From NCBI GenBank assembly GCA_964495085.1, contig CAZBUK010000003.1, positions 4,528 to 68,527 on the forward strand: 64,000 bases of DNA, given 5' to 3'. This document shows, piece by piece, positions 33,735 to 56,122 of the stretch. The translations under genes and the position numbers were made by a program. This DNA is from an uncultured Ignavibacteriales bacterium. Its GTDB lineage: Bacteria > Bacteroidota > Ignavibacteria > T3Sed10-11. A model generated the notes under the pieces. That model was not told where the DNA came from. It did no database searches and was given only the letters and a program-made list of their open reading frames with translations. Each line of letters begins with the position of its first letter. Position 1 is the stretch's first letter.

Positions 33735-33797
33735 TGCTTCAAGCTTGACTTTCTAAAAATTATCATTTACCTTGAATCAGTTCAATTTTGGTTAAAT
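33735..33797 (+). promoter_or_regulatory. Promoter/operator-like element upstream of TonB-dependent receptor #1. It is a TTGACT hexamer followed by two direct copies of AATCAGTTCAAT spaced 21 bp apart.
   Basis: agcTTGACTttctaaaaattatcatttaccttgAATCAGTTCAATtttggttaAATCAGTTCAATcagcc lies in a 1.1-kb AT-rich non-coding region. The same hexamer and repeat recur at 50663-50724 upstream of TonB-dependent receptor #2. Confidence 0.5.
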
Positions 33798-34074
33798 CAG
33801 TTCAATCAGCCATACTCCATACACTACCTGATAGACATTTAGTCGATTTTTTGTTCTTCTTCATACCACCTTGTTGCACATCATCGATGAGGTTGAGTAT
33901 ATATAACCGGAATCTGTACGATAAATAACCGGACTATTCTCGAATGAAAGAACAGAGCCAAAATCGTTGTATCAATAACACCTCCGATATAACTTCCTCA
34001 AAATGTTCTCGAGCATCTCTTTGCGTCCCGTTCAGAGGTTCATTTAATTTATAGATACTCAGGAGAGGTATTTC

Positions 34075-37000
34075 ATGATTAATTCAAGATTCTACCTGTT
34101 TCCTTTTATCATATTGCTTTTGGGTCTCGGCATCACTTCAGCACAGGATCTCCCAACAGAACAGAGATTCGGACATCTGGATGGGGTCATAACGGACCTA
34201 TCAACAGGAGCGCCGCTCATAGGTGCTAACGTTATTCTCGAGGGCACAAGTTTAGGATCCGCCACCGATCAAAATGGTAAGTATAGTATTCTCAGAGTTC
34301 CCTCAGGATCGCATACACTTGCTGTTAGCTATATCGGTTATCAAAACGTGAAATTGGAGATCGATGTACCGGGCGGAGAAACGACCACCTACGATGTGTC
34401 GTTGGCATTTCATTATGTTGAAGGTGAAGTCGTTACAATAACCGCGCAAGCGAGCGGGCAAATGCAGGCAATAAACGAGCAACTAAGCGCCCGAACAATA
34501 AAAAACATTGTAGCCGCTGAACGTATTCGTGAGTTACCCGATGAGAATGCCGCTACGGCTCTCAGCAGGTTACCGGGGGTTTCTCTACAGGAAGGAGACA
34601 AAGTAGTCGTACGCGGGATTCAGGCAAAATTGAATACTGTTCTTATAAATGGCATACAACTTCCAGCGACTACAACAACAGACCGATCGACTAATCTCGG
34701 ATTTATCTCATCTAACATGCTTGCGGGGGTCGAGGTAACTAAAGCAGTTACTCCCGATATGGACGCAAATGCTATCGGCGGGGTCGTCAATCTTCGACTC
34801 AGGGAAGCTCCGGTTGACTGGCATTTCGATATATCGACGCAAGGTTCGTACAATACTCAGAATCGAACATATCCCGGGCAAAACTATCAGGTATGGATAA
34901 GCGGTAGCAACAGGTTTTTAGACAATAAGCTCGGAGTATTCTTACAGGGGAACAGTTACCGGCAGGATGCTGGCCCGGATATCGGCAATGTCGTATATGA
35001 GAGGATGGGGCCGGGACAGGATCGCCAATACGGCGAGGCGACTTGGGGTATGCAGCAGTTCGAATACATGAATGAGATCAACGTGACGGAACAATACGGG
35101 GGAAGTCTTATTCTCGATTTTGTCTTGCCCCGCGGCAAACTCATGCTGCAGAATACGTATGCATACACGAACCCCAACAACACGCAGCATATGGACCGGC
35201 TGGGAATCGGCGCCGGCTCCCTGCTAAACCGGCTCGAGCGCAACATTTTTTCTAAGCATGTCCTGGTTAACGCATTGCAGGGAGATAACAGGTTTGGTTC
35301 AATCAACGTTGATTATGGCGTATCGCATGCGCAATCCCGTCAGGACACAGATTTATGGTACTGGGTCGAGTGGAATCCGGTCGCGGCATTCGACGGATTC
35401 GGCGAAAGTGTACGGCGCTTCTTTACCCCGGAGGACGTGTACAAAATACAATACTACGATGACTTCAGGGCGGGACAGACAGTCAGGGACGGCAGTACGC
35501 GCAGCGAATTTTTTAAGGAGCGGCAGGTTGTTGCCCACATGAACGTGACCGTGCCCGTCACGATATCCAGCTTTATATCAGGGGATATCAAGACGGGAGG
35601 CAAAGTGAATTTCCTCGGCCGTGAAAACGATACACAGCGCTCTTTTGCGCGTCTTTCGGAGGGCGATAACAATCGGACCGCACGGGATTTTCTTGTGGAT
35701 GTGGTCGGCGTCGCCAATTGGAACAGTCCATTGCGGTTCCTGGACTTTCGCGACAACAACTTCGATAAGGGGCAGTATTTTCTTGGCGGAGACTATAACA
35801 TGCGGGATGTCCTCAGGACGGACTGGATGGATCAATACATGCGTCTGGCTCCGCCCGGTTGGCCCCGCGGAGAGCAGAGCCCCTTCAACCACATTGCCGA
35901 TTCCCGAAGGTTCGACTACGAAACAGAGGAACGACTTTCTGCAGGATACCTGATGGCGGATATGAGTATCGGCTCGCGGCTCACCGTTTTGGCCGGCGTT
36001 CGGTACGAGCATTTCCAAATGGACTATGAAGCCACGTACATGCTCGAGACGCACTTCGACGGGAATGGACGGGAGATCCTCGTCGAAGAACAAATACAAG
36101 CGATGGGAGAACCGCTCACCATTGCAAAGCGAAGTGTCGATCACTGGTTCCCGAATGTGCAAGTTCGGTACTGGATTACCAACTGGTTTGACGTGCGGCT
36201 TGCGTATACAAAAACGCTCTCGAGGCCCAACTATAATCAACTCATGCCCAATATTTTCGTCACGCAGGCCAGCGGAGAGGCGGGCAATCCGAATCTGCGG
36301 CCGACCGTGTCGGATAATTATGATATCTTCTTTTCATTTTCGAACAATACAGTAGGATTGTTTACCGTCGGCGGTTTTTATAAGCGCTTGGAGGACGTGG
36401 TTCTTCAGCAACGGATCCAACGAGACCTTCTTGATTTGTATGCCCCCGGGGAGATCTCATGGCCCGACCCTGCAACCACTCTTCCTAATGTTCGCTCCAC
36501 ACAATTAATTACAACCTTTGTGAATAATCCGCATCCGGCGATAGTACGGGGAATCGAATTCGACTGGCAGACGAATTTCTGGTATCTGCCGCAACCGTTG
36601 AATTCAATGGTCCTGAATATCAATTATACGCGTATCTTCTCTGAAATGGACTACAGGCAGATCATCAATATACAACGCACGGATCCCCTGACTGGTCTTC
36701 CCGTAGTCACAGTTATTGATACGATACTTACTGCCCGGCTCCTTCAGCAGGGGAATGACGTCGTCAATATCGCGGTGGGCGCCGATTATCGCGGTTTTTC
36801 CGCGAGGATATCCTTCCGGCTGCAGGGGGATGTGATCACCACTGTCGGCAACCGTCCCGAAGAAGATGCATTCACCGAAGATGTGTATTCATGGGATTTC
36901 ACGCTCAGGCAACGTCTACCGATCCAGGGTATGAGCGTATTTTTTAGCGGCATGAATATCACCCACGCGCCTACTAATGATTTCCGGCATTTCCGGCGGG

Positions 37001-37086
37001 ACAATGCCGACCCGACGATTGATAATCGAAGCCGTACCACGTTTAGTTCTCGTAGATTTGAGCTGGGATTGCGGTATAGTTTTTAA
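34075..37086 (+). CDS. TonB-dependent outer-membrane receptor/transporter (copy 1). It has a CarboxypepD_reg-like N-terminal domain, a plug and a 22-strand barrel.
   Basis: Signal peptide MINSRFYLFPFIILLLGLGITSAQ. The Cna-B/CarboxypepD_reg-like segment is GVITDLSTGAPLIGANVILEGTSLGSATDQNGKYSIL. Plug motifs are DENAATALSRLPGVSLQ and GIQAKLNTVLINGIQLP. It has a C-terminal barrel ending in an aromatic residue. An SD AGGAGAGG precedes the ATG. Confidence 0.85.
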   Translation: MINSRFYLFPFIILLLGLGITSAQDLPTEQRFGHLDGVITDLSTGAPLIGANVILEGTSLGSATDQNGKYSILRVPSGSHTLAVSYIGYQNVKLEIDVPGGETTTYDVSLAFHYVEGEVVTITAQASGQMQAINEQLSARTIKNIVAAERIRELPDENAATALSRLPGVSLQEGDKVVVRGIQAKLNTVLINGIQLPATTTTDRSTNLGFISSNMLAGVEVTKAVTPDMDANAIGGVVNLRLREAPVDWHFDISTQGSYNTQNRTYPGQNYQVWISGSNRFLDNKLGVFLQGNSYRQDAGPDIGNVVYERMGPGQDRQYGEATWGMQQFEYMNEINVTEQYGGSLILDFVLPRGKLMLQNTYAYTNPNNTQHMDRLGIGAGSLLNRLERNIFSKHVLVNALQGDNRFGSINVDYGVSHAQSRQDTDLWYWVEWNPVAAFDGFGESVRRFFTPEDVYKIQYYDDFRAGQTVRDGSTRSEFFKERQVVAHMNVTVPVTISSFISGDIKTGGKVNFLGRENDTQRSFARLSEGDNNRTARDFLVDVVGVANWNSPLRFLDFRDNNFDKGQYFLGGDYNMRDVLRTDWMDQYMRLAPPGWPRGEQSPFNHIADSRRFDYETEERLSAGYLMADMSIGSRLTVLAGVRYEHFQMDYEATYMLETHFDGNGREILVEEQIQAMGEPLTIAKRSVDHWFPNVQVRYWITNWFDVRLAYTKTLSRPNYNQLMPNIFVTQASGEAGNPNLRPTVSDNYDIFFSFSNNTVGLFTVGGFYKRLEDVVLQQRIQRDLLDLYAPGEISWPDPATTLPNVRSTQLITTFVNNPHPAIVRGIEFDWQTNFWYLPQPLNSMVLNINYTRIFSEMDYRQIINIQRTDPLTGLPVVTVIDTILTARLLQQGNDVVNIAVGADYRGFSARISFRLQGDVITTVGNRPEEDAFTEDVYSWDFTLRQRLPIQGMSVFFSGMNITHAPTNDFRHFRRDNADPTIDNRSRTTFSSRRFELGLRYSF

Positions 37087-37224
37087 CGTTGTGTTAAAAA
37101 ATATCAGACCGTGTTATTCACAGCATCTAAACAGATATGAAAGGAGGGATAATAATAAAAACCAAAATCTTCATGTTCCTTCTGCAATTAATCAATCATA
37201 TTTTACATTAAGGAGGCGGCAGAT

Positions 37225-39093
37225 ATGAGAAAGGTTATGTTACTAATGATTCCATTATTGCTGGGTTTTGGATTTCTAAGTAGTGCAGAAGCTCAGGAAT
37301 TTATGGATTATATATCCGAGATCCGGGGAGATACTGCAGTTGTAAAAAACCTCGCACAGATGGGCGCACTGAATAGCCTCGTCGACGCGATTGAATCCGA
37401 TCCAAATCCTGATGGACGCGTTTACCTTCTTATCCGGGGAACGAACGCTGCGCCATCGCTGTACCTCCAGGACAGAGGGTATACGATTGAAGCAGAAAGA
37501 GCGATTACGATCGTCGGTGAAGATGCGGGTCCGATCGTCGGCGGTACGGAAGGAGACGGTCGGCCGCCGCTCATTGCAGGCGCTGGCGCTCAGCCGGGTT
37601 ACTTCTTTACCCACTCAACGGATTTTACGCTCAGGAACCTCGCTGTCGCTACGGGATCCAATACAGGCGAAGAAGGGTGGTGGACGTTGGGTCCGACCGG
37701 GACTGCGGCCCCTTCAGTCGCTACGTACGAAAACGTTCTCATGGAGCATAACAACTGGGTCTTTATTCAGGGCAACGATGCGCCGGGTATGACGTTGATC
37801 ATTCGGGACAGTTACTTCATTAATATGACCGGTGTCGGCTGTCGACGGAACGGCGGTGTTTACGATAGCGTGAGTTATCCGCTCGAGGAATTAATCGTTG
37901 AGAACTCAACTCACGTACAGGCGTCGGGAATCATGTATAAATTCAGGAATTTCCCGGCAAAGCGAGTCGTATTCAATCACAACACGTTCGTCAATAGTAC
38001 GGGGCAGATCATCACGTCGTTTGGTTATGAATATAACATGATCGTAGCCAATAATCTGTTCGTGAACAGCAATGTTCAGGCATTTTATCCCGGGCTGGAT
38101 GATACCGAAATCGGACTACAGCATCAACCGCACGGAATAATAAATCTGGATCACTTCGAGGGTACGAACTGGGCCGGTGAGCCGCACGGCGTCAATCCGG
38201 ATCTATTGCCCAACGGGTTGGCTACGGTGAGGAAGGTCCTTGTCGATCGGAACGGTGTATACTGGGATCCGCGTCTTACACAGATCGTCGACTATCTGAA
38301 TGACAATAATATTCCCTGCGACGATGCGAATTGTGGTGGTATCGAGGGGGAATGGATGTCCCAGATGATCACAATGAATGAGAGAACGCAATCCATGTTC
38401 GACGACAATGAGACCTATCCCTTCCTCACGGAAGGTGCCTGGATCATGGAAGGCGATCCGAATTTTGTGAGCATGGAAGACAACATCGACGACCTGATCG
38501 CATGGGGTATTGTTACCGCTCCTGCCGGTAACGACGTTCTTCTCCCCAAGTTCCGTAGTCCCGGCAACATGGCGGTAACCGGCGAACCGGAAAATTACAA
38601 CAATTTTGACTGGCCGTTATATCCGAATCTTGCCTATACCAATGAAGCGTATTTGACTGCCGGTTTAGGCGGATACCCGCTCGGCGATTTGAACTGGTTC
38701 CCGGAGCAAAAAGCAGCCTGGGAAACCGAGAAGGAAGCTCTCTATGTAGAACTGCAATCGGCCTTGAACGAAGGACGAACGACATCTGTAAGAGAAATCG
38801 GCGGAAACATTCCTTCTTCAATTCACCTCGCACAGAATTATCCTAATCCGTTTAATCCGACGACAGAAATTCAGTTCTCGTTGCCGAGTCAGGCGCATGT
38901 TTCACTCGAGATATATGACATGACCGGTCGTCTGGTTACAACACTGATCAACGGAAATATGTCATCAGGTAATTACACTGTTACCTGGGATGCAACAAAC
39001 CAATTTGGTCAGATGGTTAGCAGCGGAATATATCTCTATCGATTGCAGGCCGGAGATATTGTGGAAACCAAACGGATGACCTTCATTAAGTAA
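37225..39093 (+). CDS. Secreted right-handed parallel beta-helix protein with a T9SS (Por) C-terminal sorting domain. It is the partner of TonB-dependent receptor #1.
   Basis: Signal peptide MRKVMLLMIPLLLGFGFLSSAEAQ. Repeated N-x-F-V-N-S beta-helix-like coils (NHNTFVNSTGQII...ANNLFVNSNVQ). The C-terminal ~85 aa, NYPNPFNPTTEIQFSLPSQAHVSLEIYDMTGRLVTTL...GIYLYRLQAGDIVETKRMTFIK, matches the T9SS CTD consensus. It lies 138 bp downstream of the receptor with no intervening hairpin. Confidence 0.72.
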   Translation: MRKVMLLMIPLLLGFGFLSSAEAQEFMDYISEIRGDTAVVKNLAQMGALNSLVDAIESDPNPDGRVYLLIRGTNAAPSLYLQDRGYTIEAERAITIVGEDAGPIVGGTEGDGRPPLIAGAGAQPGYFFTHSTDFTLRNLAVATGSNTGEEGWWTLGPTGTAAPSVATYENVLMEHNNWVFIQGNDAPGMTLIIRDSYFINMTGVGCRRNGGVYDSVSYPLEELIVENSTHVQASGIMYKFRNFPAKRVVFNHNTFVNSTGQIITSFGYEYNMIVANNLFVNSNVQAFYPGLDDTEIGLQHQPHGIINLDHFEGTNWAGEPHGVNPDLLPNGLATVRKVLVDRNGVYWDPRLTQIVDYLNDNNIPCDDANCGGIEGEWMSQMITMNERTQSMFDDNETYPFLTEGAWIMEGDPNFVSMEDNIDDLIAWGIVTAPAGNDVLLPKFRSPGNMAVTGEPENYNNFDWPLYPNLAYTNEAYLTAGLGGYPLGDLNWFPEQKAAWETEKEALYVELQSALNEGRTTSVREIGGNIPSSIHLAQNYPNPFNPTTEIQFSLPSQAHVSLEIYDMTGRLVTTLINGNMSSGNYTVTWDATNQFGQMVSSGIYLYRLQAGDIVETKRMTFIK

Positions 39094-39155
39094 CGTTTGA
39101 TTCGGCCGGTAAAGAGCTGGCAGAGGTTTACAAACATCGCGATGGATGTACCCTA

Positions 39156-39192
39156 AAAGCCCCGGTCGTCGGTTTGACCGGGGCTTTTTATT
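39156..39192 (+). terminator. Rho-independent terminator after the T9SS beta-helix gene
   Basis: AAAGCCCCGGTC-gtcggttt-GACCGGGGCTTT is a perfect 12-bp stem. It is followed by TTTATT. Confidence 0.7.
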
Positions 39193-39228: not shown

Positions 39229-40980
39229 ATGCGCATCAATACGAAATTTTTCAGATTCTGCATTCTCGCATGCATACTTAGTCTTCATGGATGTACCGAC
39301 CGGGAAGATATCGACCTGAATATTATTGCCGAGGTAGGGGATAATTACCGCATAACCTTTCCCGAACTGCGCACATATACCGTCGAAAATTACCTGAATC
39401 ATATTTTCCAGGATCAGATAGAAGCACATGAGACGGCACTGGATCAAATGATCGTTAATCAATTGAAGCTGATGGATTTCTTTGCAAAAAACCTGCATGA
39501 GAATGATGAAATCATGCAAAGCATACGACGCATAATTAACGAAGAGATGACTATACACTATTTTGAAAAAAAGTATTTGGCGAATTACATCAATGAACAG
39601 TCAATCGCCGACGCATATGAACAGATGAAGAAGGAGGTTATTTATAAACAGATTGTTATTCCCAAATCAGAAGTAAACGATACCGCAGTTCATGCGAACT
39701 TGCGGGAATTGGTTGCAAAGATTCAATCCGACATCGAAGGTGGAGAGGATTTCAGCAAGCTGGCGTCGCGTTATTCTCAAGACACTGAATCAGTCCGTAG
39801 AGGCGGTTATATGCCTCAGCTTATCTGGAAGAATCTCGGGAATCCGATCCAACAGATCATATTCCGATCAAACGCAGGCGATGTTCAAAGCATCGAAACC
39901 AGGAACGCTTTTTACATTGTGAAAGTCGAGAGGATTAACGAAATAAGCGTTCAACCTTTTGAAAACGTCAAAGATGAAATCATGGAAACGATGAGGCAGC
40001 GATATTTTCAACCTAGTCTTGACGAATTCGAAGATGAAAAGAGACAATCTCTAGAGGAACAGACTCTTGAATGGAATTATAACGGATTGACTCAGATTGT
40101 CGAATGGTCGAACACACCGAACTTCTATGAACTACATTACTCCGATACTCTGCAACGGGCGATCGACGATGGACGAAACTTCATGATCGTTACCTACAGG
40201 AACGGGAAAGTCGATCTTAAAGGATTTCAACTTTTGCTCGACGATATTTCAACAATCAGACGAGGAGGTAATCTGAAAATAAACGATATAAAAGATTTCA
40301 TCGTCGAGGCATTACGTACGGAAATCATTGTGAGGCGGGCATACGAGCTTGAGCTGGATAAAGACATCCTGCATGCGTATACGACAAATCCCGTGTTGAG
40401 AAATAGAATTGTAAGATTGTATAACGGGCATGTTATAGATGAAAGCATTCCCGAACCGACCGATGCATCGCTCCGTCGTTTTTACGATGAGCAGAAAGAT
40501 TCATTGTTCCATCAACTAGCTGTTGTCAACACGTATGTATTGCTCTATTCGGACGCCGAAGAGGCACGTAACCAATGGCAGCGGATTACGGAAGGCGCTG
40601 CATTCGAGGACTTGGCAGACCGGTGGTTAGTCAAATCTTTCGTTCGGAGCCGTGACGGAAATATCGATTCTCATATGAGCACGGAATATCCATTTTTAGG
40701 CGAAACTGCATTCGGAATGGAAGTCGGTGAAGTACAGGGTCCGGTCGAATATACCGATCCGGAGAATGGAACACAGTATGCTATACTAAAATGTGCCGCC
40801 CGACGGCCTGAGAAAAAGTTAACATACGATGAAGCGAATACTACAATTGAACAAGAATTTAAAAAATATAACCGTGAAAAGATCGAGACTTCGATCCGCA
40901 AACAACTGTGGAACAAACACTCGGTTAAGGTCTACCCGGACGCTTTATTACATCATTTAAAAGAGAAGGAAATAATCTGA
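39229..40980 (+). CDS. Parvulin-type peptidyl-prolyl cis-trans isomerase (SurA/PpiD-like periplasmic chaperone), lipoprotein
   Basis: Lipobox ILACILSLHGCTD. The PpiC/parvulin domain is ...IVIPKSEVNDTAVHANLRELVAKIQSDIEGGEDFSKLASRYSQDTESVRRGGYMPQLIW...FYIVKVERI. Confidence 0.65.
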   Translation: MRINTKFFRFCILACILSLHGCTDREDIDLNIIAEVGDNYRITFPELRTYTVENYLNHIFQDQIEAHETALDQMIVNQLKLMDFFAKNLHENDEIMQSIRRIINEEMTIHYFEKKYLANYINEQSIADAYEQMKKEVIYKQIVIPKSEVNDTAVHANLRELVAKIQSDIEGGEDFSKLASRYSQDTESVRRGGYMPQLIWKNLGNPIQQIIFRSNAGDVQSIETRNAFYIVKVERINEISVQPFENVKDEIMETMRQRYFQPSLDEFEDEKRQSLEEQTLEWNYNGLTQIVEWSNTPNFYELHYSDTLQRAIDDGRNFMIVTYRNGKVDLKGFQLLLDDISTIRRGGNLKINDIKDFIVEALRTEIIVRRAYELELDKDILHAYTTNPVLRNRIVRLYNGHVIDESIPEPTDASLRRFYDEQKDSLFHQLAVVNTYVLLYSDAEEARNQWQRITEGAAFEDLADRWLVKSFVRSRDGNIDSHMSTEYPFLGETAFGMEVGEVQGPVEYTDPENGTQYAILKCAARRPEKKLTYDEANTTIEQEFKKYNREKIETSIRKQLWNKHSVKVYPDALLHHLKEKEII

Positions 40981-41041: not shown

Positions 41042-43402
41042 ATGCTCAATATTCGCGTAATTACTCTCAATCTACTGATTATTTCCGCCTGCATCCTTTG
41101 TTTTGAGATTGTTGCGACGCGAATTACTTCGGTTATATTCGTCAACAATTATGCATTTATCATTCTATCTCTTTCTATTCTCGGGCTAAGTTCAGGCGGG
41201 ATCTATTCGTATTATAAGATCAAAACGAAAAGTGAAAAACAGCTCTCGAGAACACTAAGGACAACATTGGTTTTGCTTGCTTCCGTACTGATACTATATA
41301 CTTTGGCCGTTACGCAACTTCGTATTATCGAAAATTCCGTCTTTTATTTTTTCCTCCTGTTTATCCCGTTTTTTTTCGCAGGGATATTTTATTCCCAGAT
41401 TTTTAAAAATTATGCCGCCTTCAGCTTCAAAGTATATGCCGCTGATCTGAGTGGAGCAGCCATCGGAGCAATCGCCGCAATAGGAGCCATTATTTTTCTC
41501 GGGCCGATATCAACGGTCTTAACTCTGTGTTTTCTGGTTTTCGGGTGTGCGCTGAGTTTTAGGGACGGCCGTAGTAATAAACGAGTCCAGGTAATCGGGT
41601 ATCCTATCCTTTTGACTGCAATTATTATTATGTTTATTTTCGGCAAAACAATCTCACCTGGTTCGATTCCGATCGGTAATTTTCCGGAGAAAGATTTTTA
41701 TCATGTCTACCCACATTTGAATGTACATTCAGAGATAATAGAAAGCCGCTGGAGTATTTTCGGTCGATCCGATCTCGTTCGGCACAGCCACCAGGATATG
41801 GTTAAACATCTATTTATCGACGGCTCGGCGGGCTCCCAAATGTTTCGATTCAACGGGGATATCAATAATCCCGGTCCGATACTCAGTAACCTTTTATATC
41901 GTTTTACTAACTTTATACCTTTTTTATTTTTATCGGAGCACGAAAAAAATAGTATGCTCATCATAGGTCCGGGAGGCGGTAAAGAAGTATTAACCGGATT
42001 ATTAGCGGGAGTAGATGAAATCACCGCCGCTGAGATAAATCCTGATTTTGTCAACATTGTAAAAGACTACAAAGAATATAACGGCGGCATCTATACGGAT
42101 TTTCCTAATGTACATATTATCGTACAAGAAGGCAGACAGTATGTCAAGCAGGAAAACAGACAGTACGATTTGATCGTCATGGCGCTCCCCTCCACTCAAC
42201 AGGTACAAAACATTGAAAACTATGCGTTAAGTGAAAATTACCTCCTCACCGTCGAAGCGCTAATGGATTACTTCAAAACTCTCACTCCGGAAGGGAGAAT
42301 AATCTTAACAGTCTACAATCAGTGGGAGCTTAAACGATTAATAGTTACGGTTATTTCCGCGCTTGATATATTGGGTATAGATAAAACTTCGGCAATTAAT
42401 CACTTCAAAGTTATTGAAGACGAATACTCCCCGACACTTGTTATTAAAAAAAATCCGTACTCAGAATACGATGTATTTCATCGTCTGGATTTTATGAAGG
42501 ACATGCCCGACGATTTTCCCGAAATATCGTTTTTACCGTATCAATGGAATAATCTCTCGGGTTCAACGGTGAACCGTTTATTATCAGACATATACTCGGA
42601 TCGGATTCCTCTTCGAACGATCATCAGGCAGCAGCCGGTTGATATTTCCCCCTGTTATGACGATAGCCCGTATTTTTATAAGATCCAACGTGGTATACCG
42701 GATAATTTCATTCTTTTATTCGGCATTGTCGGTATATGTAATCTCGGAATAATCGGCATTCCATATCTGCGTATCAGGAAGAACAATCGAAGGAGGAAAA
42801 AAGACACCGGACCGAAGTACCGGTTACCGTTGCTATTATTCTCCTGTCTTGGGATGGGATTTATGATACTCGAGGTATCACTTTTTCAGAAACTCGTTCT
42901 GTACTTAGGTACGCCGACAATTTCTCTTTCTATTCTCCTCAGTTCGTTACTGGTCGGAATGGGTTCGGGAAGCCTCTTCGGGTATAAAATATTCGGTGCC
43001 GATCATATTATACGTTTATTCCGCGTCAGCCTGTCGATCGTCCTTATGGGCGTGATTGTGATCATGCTGTATCCGTACCTCCTCGATACATTGTTGGGGT
43101 CGGGTTTGCTATCCCGGGCAGTTATCACTTTTTTTCTCCTGCTCCCGTTCGGTTTCCTGTTGGGTATTCCGTTTCCCACAGGTATCCGGTTGTTACGGGA
43201 TGTGAACATGGAAATATACATCCCGTGGATGTATGCTATTAACGGGACTATGTCGGTATTGGGATCGATTCTTGCGGTAACTCTCTCTATGTACTTTGGG
43301 TTCACTCCCGCCTTTTTTACAGGATTATCGTTTTATCTGATAATCGCAATCTTTTCATTCAATGATATGAAAAAGAAAACCCTGACAGCGAGTAGTTCAT
43401 AA
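41042..43402 (+). CDS. Polytopic membrane protein with an embedded spermidine-synthase-like (SAM-dependent aminopropyltransferase fold) domain
   Basis: There are about 7 N-terminal and about 5 C-terminal hydrophobic helices. The central soluble region LIIGPGGGKEVLTGLLAGVDEITAAEINPDFVNIVKDYKEYNGG...VHIIVQEGRQYV...YDLIVMALPS matches the spermidine-synthase family core, including the GGG(D/K) and D-L-I-V-x-D-like blocks. Confidence 0.55.
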   Translation: MLNIRVITLNLLIISACILCFEIVATRITSVIFVNNYAFIILSLSILGLSSGGIYSYYKIKTKSEKQLSRTLRTTLVLLASVLILYTLAVTQLRIIENSVFYFFLLFIPFFFAGIFYSQIFKNYAAFSFKVYAADLSGAAIGAIAAIGAIIFLGPISTVLTLCFLVFGCALSFRDGRSNKRVQVIGYPILLTAIIIMFIFGKTISPGSIPIGNFPEKDFYHVYPHLNVHSEIIESRWSIFGRSDLVRHSHQDMVKHLFIDGSAGSQMFRFNGDINNPGPILSNLLYRFTNFIPFLFLSEHEKNSMLIIGPGGGKEVLTGLLAGVDEITAAEINPDFVNIVKDYKEYNGGIYTDFPNVHIIVQEGRQYVKQENRQYDLIVMALPSTQQVQNIENYALSENYLLTVEALMDYFKTLTPEGRIILTVYNQWELKRLIVTVISALDILGIDKTSAINHFKVIEDEYSPTLVIKKNPYSEYDVFHRLDFMKDMPDDFPEISFLPYQWNNLSGSTVNRLLSDIYSDRIPLRTIIRQQPVDISPCYDDSPYFYKIQRGIPDNFILLFGIVGICNLGIIGIPYLRIRKNNRRRKKDTGPKYRLPLLLFSCLGMGFMILEVSLFQKLVLYLGTPTISLSILLSSLLVGMGSGSLFGYKIFGADHIIRLFRVSLSIVLMGVIVIMLYPYLLDTLLGSGLLSRAVITFFLLLPFGFLLGIPFPTGIRLLRDVNMEIYIPWMYAINGTMSVLGSILAVTLSMYFGFTPAFFTGLSFYLIIAIFSFNDMKKKTLTASSS

Positions 43403-43417: not shown

Positions 43418-45985
43418 ATGGATTCTATTGTAATTAAACTGACAGGCATAATATTCCTGGGAACGTGTTTTTATGCATTCGGATTATTACCCGTTGCTGC
43501 GCAGAACCTCAAGCTGAATGACCTTGATTACTTCGAAGCACGGGGAATAAATATCCTCGTATTCAGCAATCCACCGGGAGGCATGTTCAACGATGCGAAG
43601 ACAAGCGGGGTGGAAGTAATTCATCACGGTGTCAGAACCGTGACCAACGGCGACGTCCGGTTACGCCCTACACCCGGACAATGGGATGAGTTCGGTCACT
43701 TCATTGAGCGCGCTGTACATAGGGACGGGAACAGCATAGAGGCAAAGCTCGAATATCCCGATTACAATTTTACCTATACCGTAAAAGTTACGGCAAGGAA
43801 CGGAGGAGTGCTTCTGAACGTGATTCTCGATTCTCCTCTCCCGCAGGCTCTGGAGGGTCGCGCCGGATTTAATCTCGAGTTTCTTCCGGCGGCATACTTT
43901 GAAAGCATGTATTATATGGACGGTTCGGGGAACCTCTTCCCGCGTCACCCCGCCGGCTTGATGAACGCCCTTGAAACCGTCAAAACGGAACCTGAACCAC
44001 TTGCGCGCGGGAAAACGTTTATCGCTGCTCCCGGTGATCCCGCCAGGCAAATTACCGTCAGTTCCAAGATGAACGACCTGTCCCTGTTCGACGGAAGGAA
44101 CCAGGCACAGAACGGATGGTATGTTCTGCGCAGTATGATCCCCGGGGGCGTATCGGGCGCCGTTGTCGAATGGTTCCTTACTGCGGAGACAATTCCCGGT
44201 TGGATTCGTCCTCCGATGATCGCGTTTTCACAGGTCGGATACCATCCCAACCAACAAAAGAGGATCGTTATCGAGCATGATAAAAACGATAATCGGCGTC
44301 CCGAAGCCAGGTTGGTTCATATTACCCCGGAAGGAAAGACCGTCGAGAAGTATAAAAGTAACGTAAAGGAATGGGGGCGCTATCTGCGATACGATTATGC
44401 AATCTTCGATTTTTCCGAGGTGAAAGATACCGGAATCTATCTCGTCGAGTACGGTGGAGAAAAAACAAAGCCGTTCCGGATCGACCGGAATGTGTATGAT
44501 AATGCGTGGCACCTTACCCTCGATGTGTTTTTTCCCGTACAGATGGATCATATGCTCGTCAGGGAAGCGTACCGTGTCTGGCATGGGGCATCTCATCTCG
44601 ACGATGCGCTCCAGGCGCCGGTAGACTATGTACACTTCGACCTCTATGCTCAAGGTCCGACTACCGATACTCAGTTTGAACCGGGCGAACATATACCGGG
44701 ATTGAATATCGGCGGCTGGTACGATGCAGGAGACTACGATATACGCACCCAATCACAGTATGCAACCGTGCTGAACCTTGTCCGTGCGTGGGAAAATTTC
44801 AGTATAGAGAGAGACAACACGACGGTAAGTCAGCATGAGCGGTATGTCGAAATCCATGCTCCCGACGGTCAACCCGATATACTCCAGCAGATCGAACACG
44901 GAACGCTCGCGTTGATCGCTCAACACCGGGCCGTCGGCCACGCGATTCCGGGTATCGTCGCCGCGCATCTGTATCAGTATACCCATCTCGGAGACGGATC
45001 GACGAAAACCGATAATCGAATTTATAATCCGGATCTGGATACAGTTAATGTAAAATTTCAATCCGGAAGGATGTTTCGACCGGTGACCACGGCTCCCCGT
45101 CCCGGTACCCGGTCATTGAAAACGGACGGATTGACGAGCGGTCTGTTCGACGATCGCTGGGCATTTACCAGCAGATCAACGTCGTTAAATTACGGTTCTG
45201 CAGCGGCGTTGGCAGCGGCATCCCGCGCATTAAAGGGATTCAACGACGAGTTGGCGGAAGAATGCCTTACAACGGCCATTCGGGTATGGGATGAGGAGCA
45301 GAATGGGGAGCCGTTTCTGTTTCGCTCGGGAAATACAACCGGAGGTATTTTGGAGATCGAAAAGCTGAATGCCGCCGTCGAACTGTTGATAACGCTTGAG
45401 GACCGGGTATATGCCGATACAATTCGGGAATTGGTTTCAGCGGTTGAGCAGAGGTTCGGTTTCGCAGCTATCCCGATTGTACGTGCGCTTCCTTACATGG
45501 ATGACGAATTCAGAGAAAAAGTAGAGGAAATGGCCCGGGATTACAGCAATCAACTGGAACGTTTCCGTGAGCTAAATCCTTTCGGTGTACCTATTACGAC
45601 CGGAGGGTGGGCAGGCGGGGGAGCGGTGGTCCAATCCGCACTTACGAATTACCACCTGTATAAAGCCTTTCCGGAATTGATCGATCCGGAATATGTATAT
45701 AGAGGTTTGAGCTACATATACGGCACTCATCCGGGCTCAAATATTTCTTTCGTATCGGGCGTCGGCGCCGAATCGCAGCTTGTCGCTTATGGTATGAATC
45801 GTGCGGACTTTTCCTTCATCCCCGGCGGCATAGTACCAGGTGTCCTCGTATTACCTCCCGATTTCCCGGAAAACAAAGAAAACTGGCCCTTCTTCTGGGG
45901 TCAGAATGAATATGTGATCACGCTCGGTTCCAGTTATTTATTACTGGTTCATGCGGTTATCGATTTACTTCACAATGATAGATAA
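43418..45985 (+). CDS. Glycoside hydrolase family 9-like protein with an N-terminal Ig-like/CelD_N-type region, secreted
   Basis: GH9 signature GGWYDAGDYDIRTQSQYATV. A second GH9-like block is SAAALAAASRALKGF, and C-terminal blocks are SYIYGTHPGSNISFVSGVGAE and NEYVITLGSSYLLLV. It has an N-terminal signal/anchor MDSIVIKLTGIIFLGTCFYAFGLLPVAAQ. Confidence 0.6.
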   Translation: MDSIVIKLTGIIFLGTCFYAFGLLPVAAQNLKLNDLDYFEARGINILVFSNPPGGMFNDAKTSGVEVIHHGVRTVTNGDVRLRPTPGQWDEFGHFIERAVHRDGNSIEAKLEYPDYNFTYTVKVTARNGGVLLNVILDSPLPQALEGRAGFNLEFLPAAYFESMYYMDGSGNLFPRHPAGLMNALETVKTEPEPLARGKTFIAAPGDPARQITVSSKMNDLSLFDGRNQAQNGWYVLRSMIPGGVSGAVVEWFLTAETIPGWIRPPMIAFSQVGYHPNQQKRIVIEHDKNDNRRPEARLVHITPEGKTVEKYKSNVKEWGRYLRYDYAIFDFSEVKDTGIYLVEYGGEKTKPFRIDRNVYDNAWHLTLDVFFPVQMDHMLVREAYRVWHGASHLDDALQAPVDYVHFDLYAQGPTTDTQFEPGEHIPGLNIGGWYDAGDYDIRTQSQYATVLNLVRAWENFSIERDNTTVSQHERYVEIHAPDGQPDILQQIEHGTLALIAQHRAVGHAIPGIVAAHLYQYTHLGDGSTKTDNRIYNPDLDTVNVKFQSGRMFRPVTTAPRPGTRSLKTDGLTSGLFDDRWAFTSRSTSLNYGSAAALAAASRALKGFNDELAEECLTTAIRVWDEEQNGEPFLFRSGNTTGGILEIEKLNAAVELLITLEDRVYADTIRELVSAVEQRFGFAAIPIVRALPYMDDEFREKVEEMARDYSNQLERFRELNPFGVPITTGGWAGGGAVVQSALTNYHLYKAFPELIDPEYVYRGLSYIYGTHPGSNISFVSGVGAESQLVAYGMNRADFSFIPGGIVPGVLVLPPDFPENKENWPFFWGQNEYVITLGSSYLLLVHAVIDLLHNDR

Positions 45986-46196: not shown

Positions 46197-47261
46197 ATGA
46201 AAAAGGTGACCATTGATGATATAGCCCGCGAAGCAGGCGTATCAAAGGGCACTGTGTCTGCCGTTATTAATCAGAAAAACACCGTAAATTCCGAAACCCG
46301 TGAAATTGTTCTCGATACGATGAAGCAGTTGAATTACAGACCGAAGGGAAGCGCCCGAAATCTACGGAGGGTTAAAAAAGGATATGCAAGTATCGGACTG
46401 CTCGTCCGGGAACTTGACAATCCCTTTTATACAACGCTCGCATTGGGAGTTATGGAGTACGCCATCAGCAAAGGCTATCTGGTATTCATCGCCAGTTCCG
46501 AAGGCGATCATAACTCCGAGGATAAGATCACTGACAGTTTTGCGGTAAGAGATATCAAAGGTGCAATCATTGCACCGGTTCTCGAAGGTACGGCGGAAAT
46601 TGAACATCTCTTCGAATTGAAAATGATCAATTTCCCATTCGTCCTCCTCGAAAGCGTCAAAGGCATACAAGCGAATGTAGTGAGCATTAATAATATAAAG
46701 GCGATGAAGGAAGCGATCAAATATCTCATGGATAACGGACATTCCAGGATCGTTCATTTCGCCGGTCCAAAGCATGCCTTTCACACTTATGAGCGAATCG
46801 ACGGATTCAGAAGAGCTTACAGCGAGAGCCGTTTCGCCTACAGCAACGATATGATCGTTCCGACCGGCGCCCTCCTCGAAGACGGGCATCGAACATGTCA
46901 CGATTACTTCAGGAATCGAAGCAGGGAAGATTATCCGACTGCCATTGTCTGTTATAACGATCTCGTTGCCCTCGGCGTCATGACGGCGTTGGCGGAACTC
47001 GATATCCAGGTTCCCGACGAGATCTCCGTCATCGGCACGGACGATATACCGTTCTCGAAGAATATACCGGTTAAACTAACTACCATACAGGCGCCCATTC
47101 GAGAGCTCGGACGACGCGCCGCGGAGATACTGATCAGAAATATTGAATCCTCCGAGTCTCTACCGATCGAGAACATCGTACTGAACACAAATTTAGTGAT
47201 ACGTGAATCAACCAGAGCGTTAAATCCGGCCCGTATGGGGATGATGGTCGAAGGCGCTTGA
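46197..47261 (+). CDS. LacI-family transcriptional regulator (copy 3). It is a paralog of the LacI gene at 22846..23880.
   Basis: MKKVTIDDIAREAGVSKGTVSAVINQKNTVNSETREIVLDTMKQLNYRPKGSARNLRR. The sugar-binding core is nearly collinear with copy 2. A strong SD CAGGAGG precedes the ATG. It lies upstream of xylB-xylA. Confidence 0.9.
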   Translation: MKKVTIDDIAREAGVSKGTVSAVINQKNTVNSETREIVLDTMKQLNYRPKGSARNLRRVKKGYASIGLLVRELDNPFYTTLALGVMEYAISKGYLVFIASSEGDHNSEDKITDSFAVRDIKGAIIAPVLEGTAEIEHLFELKMINFPFVLLESVKGIQANVVSINNIKAMKEAIKYLMDNGHSRIVHFAGPKHAFHTYERIDGFRRAYSESRFAYSNDMIVPTGALLEDGHRTCHDYFRNRSREDYPTAIVCYNDLVALGVMTALAELDIQVPDEISVIGTDDIPFSKNIPVKLTTIQAPIRELGRRAAEILIRNIESSESLPIENIVLNTNLVIRESTRALNPARMGMMVEGA

Positions 47262-50423: not shown

Positions 50424-50662
50424 TGAATTGAAACTTTGAGGGAATGCGGGATTTCTGGAGCCTCGATAGATCGGTCTATTGAATCCCGTCGAGAGAAGTC
50501 TCGTTTGTGACCTGTGTCCTGATTTTATCGGTGGAAATCGAATATATCTGCCGGAGAGGAACGACATTCATCGGGATTGGTGAGCATTTTATCCTATACG
50601 ATCGCCTTACGATCATTGTGGATATGATATGGATTCTCAGGAATAAAATAAAAAAAGGGAGC

Positions 50663-50724
50663 TTGACTTTTTAATAATCTCAATATATATTGAACTAGTT
50701 CAATTCATTTTTAATCAGTTCAAT
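50663..50724 (+). promoter_or_regulatory. Sigma70-like promoter TTGACT-17-TATATT with two downstream operator-like repeats (AACTAGTTCAAT and AATCAGTTCAAT, 20 bp apart) upstream of TonB-dependent receptor #2
   Basis: gagcTTGACTttttaataatctcaataTATATTgAACTAGTTCAATtcatttttAATCAGTTCAATatattc. TTGAACTAGTTCAA is itself a perfect 14-bp palindrome. The receptor start lies about 490 nt downstream, giving a long leader. Confidence 0.55.
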
Positions 50725-51213: not shown

Positions 51214-54200
51214 ATGTTACCTCAGATCAATACCCGCGGGAATCGGTATAGTGTATTTCTCAGTCTCTTGCTTATTTTCGTATTTCAAGCCGGCATATTC
51301 GCCCAATCCGGTACCATTCGTGGGCAGGTGATCGATAACGAGACGAGAGCCCCTTTAGCCGGCGCTAATATCATCATACAGGGTACGAGTCTGGGTGCGG
51401 CAACGGATCTCAATGGGCACTATGTAGTTCGCAACGTTCCGGCTGGGTCGGTTACGATTGTTATCTCCTATATCGGATATGACAGAATCACGATGGAGAT
51501 TACCGTTACCGCCAATAGAATCATAGAGCAGGACTTTGCTCTTCGCTCGACCTTAATCGAAGGAGAAACGATCGTCATTACGGCTCAGGGTGAAGGGCAA
51601 GTATCGGCCATTCAACAACAGATCGCCTCGAATAAGATAGTGAATATCGTATCCGAGGCAAGGATCCAGGAACTTCCGGATTTCAACGCCGCTCAGGCAA
51701 TAGCCCGCTTGCCCGGAATCTCGACATTGAAAAGCTCGGGCGAGGACAACAAGGTCGTCATCAGAGGATTGGCTCCTCAATTCAACGCAATCGAAGTCGG
51801 AGGAGTTAAGCTCGGCGCTACCGGTAGTACGCAAATCGGAGCAACCTCTCAGGGAGGTACCGCCGGTAACGTCAGCAGCGACAGGAGCGTCGATCTCTCG
51901 CTGATTACGCCCTATATGATAAAATCCATATCCCTCTATAAAGCAATCACCCCCGATATGAATGCAAATGTCATCGGCGGGTTGGTGAATATAGAATTGA
52001 GGGAAGCTCCGTCCGGATTTCGCGGCGACGTTCTCTGGCAATCCGGCTACACGCAAAAGAGCGGCCAATATGGGAACTATAGAACCGTCGTATCTGCAAG
52101 CAACAGATTCTTTAACGACCGTCTCGGCGCATACGTCCTGCTGAATGCAGAGTCCTATGATCGTAACGCGGATAATATGAGCGCCGGTTATCGTATCGTT
52201 CAGCATTTCCGCGGAGAGGGCAGATTTTCCGACGTAGCAGTTGATAATGTACAGCTGAGTCGGTTCATTGAAAACAGGCAGCGCTACGGGGCTAACCTGA
52301 TCCTCGACTACCCGCTTCCCAACGGCAGTATTAAGTTGATCAATATGTTTGCACGTCTGCGTTCTGATTTCAACGATCACAGGATGGTAATGAACTACAC
52401 TTCAAATAACATTACCTTCAATTACAGAGAAGGGGTCAATCACATCGACATGGTATTGAATTCGTTGAAATTCGAATATGATCTCGGGAGGGTGCTCGTA
52501 GATGTGACGGCGGCAAATAATTCTTCCAGAAATGACCTACCCGAAACTCCCCGCCTCAATTATTTACTGGCTGGAGGGATAGTTAAAACCGGAGAGACAC
52601 CGCGAAACACCGTTCCCGAAGAATTGACACAATTTATCGCCTTCGAAGAACGTGGGGGAGCAGATCAGACGGTTCTGACACAAATAGACCTCTTCAGTTC
52701 CAAATACAGAGAAACCAATCGTTCGGTGAACGCAAATTTCACTCTGCCCTTTGCCCTGAGTACATCTTTCTCCGGATATTTCAAAGCTGGCGGTGTTTTT
52801 AGGTACGAAAACCGTACGATGGACCAGGAAACCCCTTATGTCGGTATGGGACTCACGAGCGATATTCAGCGGCGGATGATGGATGCCCTGATGGCTGAGT
52901 TCAATGTGCAATTACCATCTGGACAAGGGCTCTTTCCCGCCTCGACGTTTTCTTCCCGTAATTCGGACCTCCTTAAACCCTTTTTAAATGATAAGTTCGG
53001 ACGCTTTTTGTGGGCCGGTGACCCCACCATACCGGTAGGATTCGCACGGTACCTGTCGGCGCATCGGGAGGAATTTGCTGGTGTGGGCTCCGGACCGGAG
53101 GGTGCGGGTGGATGGTATGACGGGCCATTCCAACAGCTCGCCAACGATTTTGAATATACAGAAAGGTATTATGCCGGTTACTTGATGACCGAAATAAATT
53201 TCCTCAATTTTATGATAGTGGGCGGCGTTAGATATGAGTTAAATAAATCCGAATTTTTTGCATACAATATGGTTGATGCCCGTAATCCGCCTACTCAGGT
53301 ATGGACGGAGACTACCGTATATCCGGAGAACGAATTCTGGTTGCCGATGGTACAGGTCCGGTATAAGCCGTTTGGCTGGGGAGATGTCCGGTATGCGTAC
53401 ACTCAAACACTCGCCCGCCCGGACTTTCACATGCTCTCGCCGCGTGTTTCCTTTTCATACGATCACCGCAACCTCTGGACCGGCAATCCGGATCTTAAAC
53501 CGGCGGAGGCATTAAATCACGATCTTATAGTGACCTTGTACAGCAACCGGTTAGGATTATTCTCTGTCGGAGGATTCCACAAAACGGTATCGAACTTCTC
53601 CTATTATACGCAGTATGCGGTGTATGAGGCGAGCCGGATGCGGCCCGGACTCGAAAGCGTTGAATCGATCACCGAAAGAACCGGCAACACACCGCAGGTA
53701 GGCGCTATTTTAAATACTTACGTCAATTCGGCTTACGACGCAACGGTGAAAGGAATCGAGGTAGATTTTCAAACCCGACTCTGGTATTTGCCCGGCCTGT
53801 TGAAAGGGATTGTGCTCGGGGCGAATTTTACCACTATTCAATCCAAAGCCACATATCCGTGGAGAGACACCTTTACCATACTGAATCCCAACCCTCCGCC
53901 CAGAAACATTCCCGACGTAGTCGACAGCACTCGTACGGGCCGGTTGATCAACCAGCCGGATAATATCGTAAATACATATATCGGTTACGACTACATGGGA
54001 TTTTCCACCCGTTTCTCATATACCTTCATCGAAAACGCCATGAGCGGCATCGGAAGGTTCGACGAACAGGACGGATTTACGAGGGATTACCACAGGCTTG
54101 ATATCTCCGCTCGGCAGAAATTACCCTTTATGGGAATGGAAGTATACTTAGACCTTAATAACCTTAATGCGGCAACCAATGTTTCGGCACAGAAAACGAT

Positions 54201-56078: not shown

Positions 56079-56092
56079 CTACATCTCTGCAT

Positions 56093-56122
56093 GCGGGCGT
56101 ATACGATTTAAGTATACGCCCG
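56093..56122 (+). terminator. Hairpin terminator after the second T9SS beta-helix gene
   Basis: GCGGGCGTATAC-gatttaa-GTATACGCCCG is an 11-12-bp GC-rich stem. It is followed by tatgtttgtg. Confidence 0.5.

Follow-up and report, generated by a model that had tools for sequence, protein, structure and literature searches.

Two TonB-dependent receptors, each followed by a T9SS-sorted beta-helix protein, in an uncultured Ignavibacteriales bacterium

Organization of the two receptor loci

The 64,000-nucleotide stretch of DNA analysed here (the window) encodes two TonB-dependent receptors; 3′ of each receptor gene, on the same strand, lies one for a secreted beta-helix protein, referred to below as its partner. 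This arrangement had been proposed in an initial annotation, and the ORFs and domain matches bear it out. The features of the first locus are:

33743..33806, + strand, promoter-like/operator-like element 5′ of receptor 1: AGCTTGACTTT, then TTGAATCAGTTCAAT, then AATCAGTTCAAT
34075..37086, + strand, TonB-dependent receptor 1, 1003 aa: signal peptide, CarbopepD_reg N-terminal domain, Plug and 22-strand-type barrel (PF13715, PF07715, PF00593, PF14905)
37087..37224, + strand, gap of 138 bp between receptor 1 and partner 1, with AAGGAGG ahead of the ATG
37225..39093, + strand, partner 1, 622 aa: signal peptide (aa 1–23), right-handed beta-helix (aa ~60–300), mixed region, conserved block (aa 455–516; DWP..NLSY.N..GGYPLGDLNWFPEQ plus a long helix) and T9SS type-A sorting domain (aa 533–622)
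39155..39192, + strand, hairpin terminator 3′ of partner 1: 14-bp stem, −25.4 kcal/mol, z −5.74; hairpin at 39155–39188, then U run, UUUUUAUU
39229..40980, + strand, PrsA/SurA-like lipoprotein with two parvulin PPIase domains, 583 aa, lipobox LSLHG-C (Pfam Rotamase families)
41042..43402, + strand, polytopic membrane protein with a spermidine-synthase-like domain, 786 aa (weak SpeE matches)
43418..45985, + strand, GH9 glycoside hydrolase with CelD_N and a signal peptide, lacking a sorting domain (PF00759, PF02927)
46197..47261, + strand, LacI-family regulator (NCBIfam and Pfam LacI family)

Those of the second locus are:

50660..50724, + strand, promoter-like/operator-like element 5′ of receptor 2, with a perfect palindrome, ATTGAACTAGTTCAAT, at 50689–50704
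51214..54267, + strand, TonB-dependent receptor 2, 1017 aa, paralogous to receptor 1 (Pfam and 31 % identity)
54318..56078, + strand, partner 2, 586 aa, paralogous to partner 1; its T9SS type-A sorting domain spans aa 508–586
56089..56127, + strand, hairpin 3′ of partner 2: 16-bp stem, −28.4 kcal/mol, z −6.69, with a weaker U tail
56297..59284, + strand, T9SS-sorted protein with two large internal repeats, 995 aa (sorting domain, 714-nt internal repeat)
59410..61092, + strand, GH10 xylanase with a T9SS sorting domain (PF00331, E 5.8e-54; PF18962)

Both receptors consist of CarbopepD_reg, Plug and TonB barrel domains according to Pfam, and the presence of PF07715 together with PF00593/PF14905 identifies each as a TonB-dependent transporter. 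They are paralogous, as proposed, with 31 % identity over 981 aa (E 4e-131), and a tblastn search found no further receptor or partner copies in the window. The ATG of receptor 2 is preceded 5 nt upstream by AGGAGG; translation could alternatively start from an in-frame TTG at 51199. The best full-length match of both receptors is the TonB-Xanth-Caul family (TIGR01782), to which receptor 1 belongs with 329.9 bits against a cut-off of 310. Receptor 2 has this family as its top match too (271.6 bits, model positions 2–863), although since the score lies below the cut-off its membership is probable and not formal. The SusC/RagA model (TIGR04056, cut-off 368) gives 57.1 and 57.2 bits, confined to model positions 2–145, the N-terminal domain. 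TonB-Xanth-Caul receptors function without SusD in Xanthomonas and Caulobacter, and because the receptors are of this type a SusD is not expected here. The absence of a SusD-like gene beside either receptor is as had been reported (Pfam, NCBIfam searches), but the premise that one is missing is not supported.

The partners are paralogues as well, with 29 % identity over 568 aa, which is the full length (E 1e-52). Each has a cleavable signal peptide and a type-A T9SS sorting domain, scoring 44.3 (partner 1) and 42.9 bits (partner 2) with TIGR04183, for which the cut-off is 23, and 32.4 and 37.4 bits with PF18962; both thus have the Sec signal peptide and sorting domain of type-A T9SS cargo, and both score under the cut-off of the type-B model CHU_C. 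The window contains no T9SS machinery genes. No Pfam or NCBIfam family was matched by the partner, and for partner 2 there are weak matches to Beta_helix and DUF5123 (E 0.006 for DUF5123). The block GG(F/Y)PLGDL..W(F/W)PEQ, picked out in the initial annotation as common to the two proteins, is real and is the best-conserved block family-wide, with G487, D488, L489 and W491 invariant. Three family members apparently lacking sorting domains (P0006, P0116 and P0080) were considered as lipoprotein variants and rejected, their gene calls being truncated or frameshifted.

The gap between receptor 2 and partner 2 is 50 bp long. Neither this gap nor the 138 bp gap folds better than shuffled sequence (z +0.40 and +0.55 respectively) or contains a terminator-like site on the + strand, and each pair is closed by the strong hairpin 3′ of its partner, all in agreement with the initial annotation. 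The elements 5′ of the two receptors align without gaps and probably represent promoter and operator. The 12-mer AATCAGTTCAAT, allowing up to one mismatch, is found four times in the window against 0.53 expected. Since promoter and operator appear to be the same, the two operons apparently belong to one regulon, for which the LacI-family protein encoded at 46197..47261 is a candidate regulator; a near-copy of the operator half-site lies near its gene, at 46081–46092. The motif is barely enriched 5′ of receptors in 42 other loci (0.37 vs 0.19 per kb) and is therefore specific to this genome.

Conservation of the receptor–partner pair

The receptor–partner pair is a conserved, co-inherited module. 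Among 52 assessable, de-duplicated metagenome loci, found by a survey of metagenome contigs using a family alignment from which the sorting domain had been removed, 46 (88 %) have a receptor on the same strand 34–168 bp upstream of the partner. The pairing is clade-specific, in that partners resembling partner 1 always accompany receptors resembling receptor 1 and partners resembling partner 2 accompany receptors resembling receptor 2, and the identities of partner and receptor to the window copies are correlated (r = 0.82). When receptors were instead chosen regardless of partner (from Gracilimonas mengyeensis, Calditrichaceae, KSB1 and Ignavibacteria), all four adjoined a partner homologue. 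The contention that the pairing is no accident is thus upheld. Adjacency is not obligatory, since in six of the 52 loci the partner is found among other T9SS-sorted genes with no adjoining receptor.

The nearest named relatives are from Rhodohalobacter, other Balneolales and Marinimicrobia, at ~46–55 % identity. Distant partners, with 23–30 % identity, occur in Melioribacter, Ignavibacteriota and on other contigs, and these too are preceded by a receptor. A scan of genome contigs that kept the sorting domain was dominated by matches to NYPNPFNP, mostly in unrelated T9SS proteins, and yielded four useful loci (L001, L002, L005 and L030). Literature searches on this pairing turned up nothing on the partner family beyond an unannotated entry in a Rhodothermus marinus table, discussed below. 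Its recurrence across several phyla makes the partner look like an undescribed accessory of sugar uptake and not a substitute for SusD.

The module at locus 1 exceeds two genes, the PPIase lipoprotein, the 786-aa membrane protein and the GH9 hydrolase being co-conserved with the pair. The PPIase lipoprotein matches PrsA and SurA structures in the PDB at aa 143–262 and 422–546. Of 22 assessable metagenome loci with a partner-1-like gene, 16 have the lipoprotein gene 3′ of it, and so do five partner-chosen loci, L171 and all four receptor-chosen loci. Homologues of the membrane protein (52–54 % identical) occupy the same position in L084/L085, L167, L168 and L169; a 776-aa gene with no Pfam match has this position in L171 and is a candidate homologue. 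The GH9 position is kept in L082, L084/L085, L168 and L171. We note that the strong terminator lies between partner 1 and these downstream genes, which we count against the main reading offered below. At locus 2, 14 of 22 assessable loci encode a body homologous to the 995-aa protein 3′ of the partner-2-like gene, and the protein aligns in part to L081 2049–2630, within a gene called as CBM_4_9 plus GH10. Across the window and the related loci the carbohydrate-related neighbours include GH10, GH43, GH115, GH30, GH9, esterases, XylA/XylB and LacI, and proteins with sorting domains are dense. The positions of the surrounding glycoside hydrolase genes are much less fixed than the adjacency of receptor and partner.

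Possible roles of the partner protein

The partner-family profile aligns to the C-terminal domain of the PL6 lyase 7dmk_A (residues 445–690, E 1.7e-9), which is the closest solved structure to the partner and its sole sequence-level match in the PDB. The PL6 N-terminal catalytic domain, the beta-helix with the Ca-binding and Lys/Arg catalytic residues, scores 0.2 bits against the same profile, and the family thus shows no PL6 catalytic domain by this comparison. The PL6 C-terminal domain is a beta-helix without catalysis that binds glycan and docks onto its partner domain (PMC12992946).

The explanation that we favour, and to which we would give about an even chance, is that each locus encodes a glycan importer of non-SusC type and its own surface glycan-binding accessory, within one hemicellulose regulon. 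Speaking for it are the receptor type, the pairing, the carbohydrate-related domains and neighbours, the putative common promoter and operator, and the co-transcription predicted for R. marinus (PMC6987092). The analysis shows gene order, paralogy, domain content, fold, the PL6 C-terminal homology, conservation across phyla and clade-specific pairing; from these we infer surface tethering, glycan binding, the substrate, contact with the transporter and co-regulation. The partner would be exported by the Sec pathway and then carried over the outer membrane by the type IX secretion system, and would probably stay tethered to the surface once its C-terminal sorting domain had been removed. In Bacteroidota, though not in these lineages, type-A cargo is known to become covalently attached to the cell surface. 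The partner, whose body is a right-handed beta-helix followed by the strongly conserved block adjoining the membrane anchor, most likely binds hemicellulose-derived chains or oligosaccharides at the surface and hands them to its own transporter. Xylanases and CBM-rich proteins displayed through T9SS would cut and hold the polymer, and a presumably periplasmic GH9, then the cytoplasmic pentose enzymes XylA and XylB, would complete the breakdown, both operons being driven by the putative common promoter and operator as one regulon.

The partner might instead be a new T9SS-displayed beta-helix hydrolase or lyase that makes oligosaccharides of transportable size beside the transporter, much as the surface endo-enzyme does in a polysaccharide-utilization locus (PUL) and unlike a binding protein, a possibility that we entertain only tentatively. 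A conserved cluster of charged residues in clade 1 (R207, R208, E226, H230, K239, R241 and H252) could be an active site, but these residues are not retained in clade 2 (YKFRN becomes MQEEN), and the residues invariant in both clades are mostly those of an Asn/Thr ladder and of the C-terminal block. The initial annotation had raised the possibility of plain secreted lyases conserved independently of the receptors; the partners match no Pfam glycoside hydrolase or polysaccharide lyase family and are co-conserved with the receptors. Their homology, moreover, is to the non-catalytic PL6 domain only, and GH10 endo-xylanases with sorting domains are already encoded in the loci. Some family members have a CBM4_9 or CBM35 inserted between the body and the sorting domain. 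These modules link the family to carbohydrate, but CBM appendages are commoner on enzymes than on binding proteins, and in this respect we regard these relatives as a point against a binding accessory. A further such point is that other T9SS proteins could already provide glycan capture, among them the GH10s with CBM4_9 in related loci and the 995-aa protein that aligns to one of these.

It is unlikely, in our estimation, that receptor and partner have no specific coupling, the partner being one of many T9SS proteins of the regulon and its adjacency a product of shared regulation and operon inheritance. The abundance of sorting-domain proteins in the window and related loci speaks for such an account, as do the six loci where the partner lies among sorting-domain genes away from any receptor. 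It does not sit easily with adjacency in 88 % of loci, always on the same strand and with short gaps, with the outcome of the receptor-first search, with the far less fixed positions of the surrounding glycoside hydrolase genes, or with a clade-specific pairing kept since a duplication older than several phylum-level lineages. Less probable still is a SusC-type transporter whose SusD lid has been swapped for a T9SS-anchored beta-helix protein. The receptors do have in common with SusC the CarbopepD_reg extension, and no SusD neighbours them, but the match to TIGR04056 ends within the first ~145 positions at 57 bits of the 368 required, the barrel is of TonB-Xanth-Caul type, and a beta-helix is wholly unlike SusD, whose fold is an all-helical TPR one. 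In addition an apparent pair of the same kind, with a putative partner homologue, lies beside a true SusC/SusD in R. marinus (PMC6987092). Of the module proposed in the initial annotation, the conserved pairing of receptor and partner is therefore supported, and its framing as a replacement of SusD is not.

Going beyond the favoured explanation of an importer and its binding accessory, we think it conceivable, if rather doubtful, that partner and transporter form a stable 1:1 complex in which the partner is an extracellular substrate-capturing lid, convergent with SusD but not a lipoprotein. Such complexes would then occur widely, in Balneolales, Rhodothermales, Marinimicrobia, Ignavibacteria, Calditrichota and KSB1; docking would take place through the invariant membrane-proximal segment DWP..NLSY.N..GG.PLGDLNWFP, and assembly would have its dedicated chaperone in the PrsA/SurA-like lipoprotein.

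Glycan uptake in Bacteroidota is understood through SusC/SusD, and much less so in other members of the FCB superphylum such as Marinimicrobia, Ignavibacteria, Calditrichota, KSB1 and Balneolales, abundant members of ocean, sediment and soil communities. The partner, a conserved and uncharacterised protein tied to one transporter family throughout these lineages, offers a concrete candidate for the capture step that is missing there and, if this is true, would be the first accessory of a transporter to be anchored through type IX secretion instead of lipid. It may also serve as an annotation marker for PUL-like loci overlooked by SusD-based searches. The idea is directly testable because there are culturable carriers, namely Gracilimonas mengyeensis, Rhodohalobacter sp. 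SW132 and probably Rhodothermus marinus.

Comparison with known systems

The partner beta-helix resembles the C-terminal domain of the two-domain PL6 alginate lyases (BcAlyPL6, 7dmk; AlyGC, 5gkd; BoPL6), but it stands alone as a secreted protein without the PL6 catalytic domain, adds a region of ~220 aa and a T9SS sorting domain, and is found in a xylan and not an alginate context.

With SusC/SusD the loci have in common a TonB-dependent glycan importer directly 5′ of a gene for a (here predicted) surface accessory, a glycan-degradation setting and the CarbopepD_reg N-terminal extension. They differ in that the barrel lies outside the SusC/RagA family, the partner is a beta-helix and not a TPR-like helical lipoprotein, and the predicted anchoring is through a T9SS sorting domain, where SusD has a lipid-modified cysteine. 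Under the strict definition of a PUL, SusC/SusD beside CAZymes, the loci do not qualify; GH9, GH10 and LacI are present, and no SusC/SusD was found in the window regions examined. The general logic of a surface binding-protein gene beside a transporter gene also recalls TbpA/TbpB, BtuB/BtuG, HmuR/HmuY and RagA/RagB, although to our knowledge the accessories of these systems are all lipoproteins and none is a T9SS-sorted beta-helix.

The xylan locus of R. marinus (Rmar_1067–1081) includes LacI, and GH43-CBM6 and Xyn10A with Por sorting domains, next to which the published table lists the TonB-dependent receptor Rmar_1070, Rmar_1071 and two more hypothetical proteins (PMC6987092). Rmar_1071 appears there as a ‘hypothetical protein with Por sorting domain’ with no function assigned, and co-transcription of the receptor, this protein and Xyn10A was predicted (PMC6987092). 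The gene order matches that of the Rhodohalobacter locus L081, with Rmar_1071 a putative homologue of the partner. The R. marinus locus differs in also holding a true SusC/SusD pair (PMC6987092), and since both systems are listed in the one locus they apparently coexist, the one not replacing the other.

The CUT loci of Xanthomonas and Caulobacter combine LacI-type regulators and glycoside hydrolases with TonB-Xanth-Caul receptors, among them SuxA, MalA, NagA and those for xylan. The loci described here resemble them in receptor family, as judged by the TIGR01782 score, in having no SusD, and in clustering with a LacI regulator, a xylanase and pentose catabolism genes. They are distinguished by the CarbopepD_reg N-terminal domain of their receptors, by enzymes displayed through T9SS and by a dedicated T9SS-sorted beta-helix partner 3′ of the receptor, a component that we do not know to have been described for any CUT locus.

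Paired receptor and partner genes in a hemicellulose island

The region from 34 to 61 kb of the window lies within a pentose and hemicellulose island encoding GH31, three LacI-type regulators, arabinose isomerase, a sodium:solute symporter, a GH51 arabinofuranosidase, an AraR-type regulator, ribulokinase, an aldolase-type epimerase, xylulokinase and xylose isomerase. For xylose isomerase (49020-50423), the longest ORF opens at a GTG and shares 64 nt with the end of the xylulokinase gene (47458-49083); as the family models align no earlier than residue ~33, translation probably begins downstream of that GTG. Elsewhere in the window, two adjacent giant ORFs on the + strand (13256-18511 and 18608-22786; 1751 and 1392 aa) have no Pfam match at E <= 1e-4.

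Genes of the two loci and of the array at locus 1
34075-37086, receptor 1: signal peptide, CarbopepD_reg, Plug, TonB-dependent barrel
37225-39093, same strand as receptor 1 and 138 bp after it: partner 1
39229-40980, 3' of partner 1: PrsA/SurA-like lipoprotein with two parvulin domains (PPIase), lipobox LSLHG-C
41042-43402: 786-aa polytopic membrane protein with a spermidine-synthase-like domain
43418-45985: GH9 with a signal peptide and without a sorting domain, periplasmic-type
51214-54267, receptor 2: signal peptide, CarbopepD_reg, Plug, TonB-dependent barrel
54318-56078, same strand as receptor 2 and 50 bp after it: partner 2

Each partner is ~600 aa long; it starts with a cleavable signal peptide and ends in a T9SS sorting domain of type A (TIGR04183, 44.3 bits in partner 1 and 42.9 bits in partner 2, cut-off 23). 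The receptors are 31% identical to each other and the partners 29% over their full length; tblastn found no third receptor copy in the window. RNA structure in the two receptor-partner gaps is no stronger than chance, and hairpins of -25.4 kcal/mol (z -5.7) and -28.4 kcal/mol (z -6.7) lie 3' of partners 1 and 2 respectively. The initial annotation had described two same-strand pairs of paralogous receptors and paralogous beta-helix T9SS proteins, with hairpin-free gaps and a strong hairpin closing each pair, and the ORFs, domains, gap lengths, alignments and folding energies confirm it in all checkable details.

Elements upstream of receptor 1 (33743-33806) and receptor 2 (50660-50724) align without gaps and share a TTGACT -35-like box; their layout is AGCTTGACTTT, a palindromic site of 15-16 nt and, eight bases on, a second AATCAGTTCAAT. 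The palindrome is perfect at 50689-50704 (ATTGAACTAGTTCAAT), a 12-mer of the element is present four times in the window (up to one mismatch; 0.53 expected by chance), and a near-copy at 46081-46092 (- strand) precedes the LacI gene that starts at 46197. The element is probably a common operator, and suggests that the two receptor operons form one regulon with long 5' leaders, of about 270 nt for receptor 1 and 490 nt for receptor 2. Comparison with other loci shows the motif to be specific to the genome of the window.

Conservation of the pair and its neighbours

Targeted look-ups of five partner homologues (one each from Rhodohalobacter sp. SW132, a Rhodothermaceae MAG and a 3.6-Mb ENA contig, and two from Marinimicrobia) all gave the order receptor, partner, PPIase-domain protein. 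A survey of metagenome contigs, using a query without the sorting domain, returned 80 loci, and those assessable were de-duplicated and had 1.5 kb or more of sequence before the partner gene. A same-strand receptor lies directly upstream of 20 partner-1-like and 26 partner-2-like genes (46 of 52 loci, 88%), with one and five, respectively, having no adjacent receptor; at these six exceptional loci the partner lies among other sorting-domain genes. Across the metagenome loci the gap is 34-168 bp, partner-1-like genes always accompany a receptor of type 1 and partner-2-like genes one of type 2, and the identities of receptor and partner to the window copies vary together (r = 0.82). Distant partners (23-30% identical; Melioribacter, Ignavibacteriota and other contigs) likewise have a receptor upstream. 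In the reverse test, four receptor homologues were selected on the receptor sequence only, from Gracilimonas mengyeensis, Calditrichaceae, KSB1 and Ignavibacteria, and each of them adjoins a partner homologue. The pair is thus an ancient unit whose two genes duplicated and diverged together, and six or more lineages of phylum or order rank retain it. The earlier proposal of a functional, conserved module is well supported by the survey and reverse test; mere co-location of receptor and partner is improbable. We note that in KSB1 two ORFs make up the partner homologue (L169, 10342-12101) and that another, in a long-read Bacteroidetes-labelled MAG (L005, ~6700-8384), contains in-frame stops; either may be a pseudogene or a sequencing error.

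The five-gene array of locus 1 is also found complete in Marinimicrobia (L084/L085), in Calditrichaceae (L168) and at a further locus (L171), and four of its genes in Gracilimonas and KSB1. A PPIase gene lies 3' of partner-1-like genes at 16 of 22 assessable metagenome loci and 3' of partner-2-like genes at none of 24. At 14 of 22 loci the gene after a partner-2-like gene instead encodes a relative of the 995-aa protein with a sorting domain (56297-59284). The 995-aa protein has no Pfam domain other than the sorting domain, and a portion aligns with a CBM4_9-bearing GH10 protein of a Rhodohalobacter locus (L081). Its gene contains a 714-nt direct repeat (56425-57138 and 57688-58401, 98.3% identical, 1263 nt spacing), which indicates that part of the gene was duplicated very recently, underwent gene conversion or was misassembled. 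The PPIase, membrane-protein and GH9 genes are co-conserved 3' of receptor-1/partner-1 pairs in several phyla despite the strong terminator after partner 1 here, and the 786-aa membrane protein, possibly responsible for an inner-membrane step, is 52-54% identical across phyla, above the conservation of the partner. Neighbouring genes over all loci (GH10, GH43, GH115, GH30, GH9, esterases, LacI) point to xylan or another hemicellulose as substrate.

Receptor type and partner fold

The family scores of the receptors decide the interpretation. The partner had been assigned the role of SusD on the premise that the receptors are SusC-type, but both match the SusC/RagA model over its first ~145 positions only (57 bits versus a cut-off of 368), the matching part being the N-terminal CarbopepD_reg extension. 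Their full-length match is to TIGR01782, the TonB-Xanth-Caul subfamily (receptor 1, 329.9 bits, over the cut-off of 310; receptor 2, 271.6 bits, its best match, under it). Receptors of this type are known as the glycan importers of SusD-free CUT loci in Xanthomonas and Caulobacter. SusD is thus not 'missing' at these loci, because it is not expected with such a receptor, and the 'SusD role' remains an analogy built on the wrong receptor family.

The partner body matched no Pfam or NCBIfam family. A confident AlphaFold2 model of partner 1 (pLDDT 86.3, pTM 0.79; 32 homologues as input) predicts that a right-handed beta-helix spans aa ~60-300 and that after it come a segment of mixed alpha/beta structure, a long helix (aa 493-516), a linker modelled with low confidence and the sorting-domain sandwich. 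Invariant residues of the family belong mostly to the Asn/Thr ladder of the beta-helix, and the best-conserved block, DWP..NLSY.N..GG.PLGDLNWFP, directly precedes the membrane-proximal helix. A profile of ten diverse members, sorting domain left out, gives a sequence-level match to BcAlyPL6 (E 1.7e-9) over residues 445-690 only, the C-terminal domain, and scores 0.2 bits against the catalytic N-terminal domain. This C-terminal domain is catalytically inactive, binds polyguluronate and docks on the catalytic domain via a 'DEST' loop (PMC12992946). In the profile alignment that loop lines up with the one in partner 1 that follows its conserved YKFRN motif (MQEEN in partner 2), so the loop may serve as a functional contact and carry a different charge in each of the two clades.

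A scan of 1.84 billion representatives gave 368 clusters at E <= 1e-3 and 121 at E <= 1e-10, with the T9SS sorting domain in all eight clusters sampled. Some sampled members and closer homologues carry extra domains (P0054, P0109, P0283, P0286, P0289, P0249 and P0260): CBM4_9 or CBM35 inserted between beta-helix body and sorting domain, cohesin and dockerin in one protein, and a subtilase fusion in another. The CBM4_9 variant P0054 (L171) retains the whole array of LacI, receptor, partner, PPIase, membrane protein and GH9.

Role of the partner and known systems

We favour, at roughly even chances, the view that the partner is tethered to the cell surface and would bind glycans, probably without catalysis, as an accessory that serves its own transporter in a CUT-like or PUL-like hemicellulose regulon. 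The main rival is that the partner is a new beta-helix glycanase; with the BcAlyPL6 match lying in the inactive domain, we consider this possible, if rather unlikely. A transporter with a surface accessory protein is known in kind, the new part being a protein family without earlier characterisation; carriers of the module that can be cultured exist for testing.

Neither the partner family nor its pairing with the receptor was found described in the searched literature. The one relevant entry is a gene table for the xylan locus of Rhodothermus marinus, which lists in order LacI, GH43-CBM6 and Xyn10A, the latter two with Por sorting domains, then the TonB-dependent receptor Rmar_1070 and the sorting-domain hypothetical protein Rmar_1071, for which co-transcription is predicted, then two further hypothetical proteins and a true SusC/SusD pair, Rmar_1077/1078 (PMC6987092, Table 1). 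The gene order is the same as in Rhodohalobacter. Should the candidate Rmar_1071 prove homologous to the partner, the module would stand beside SusC/SusD and not replace it.
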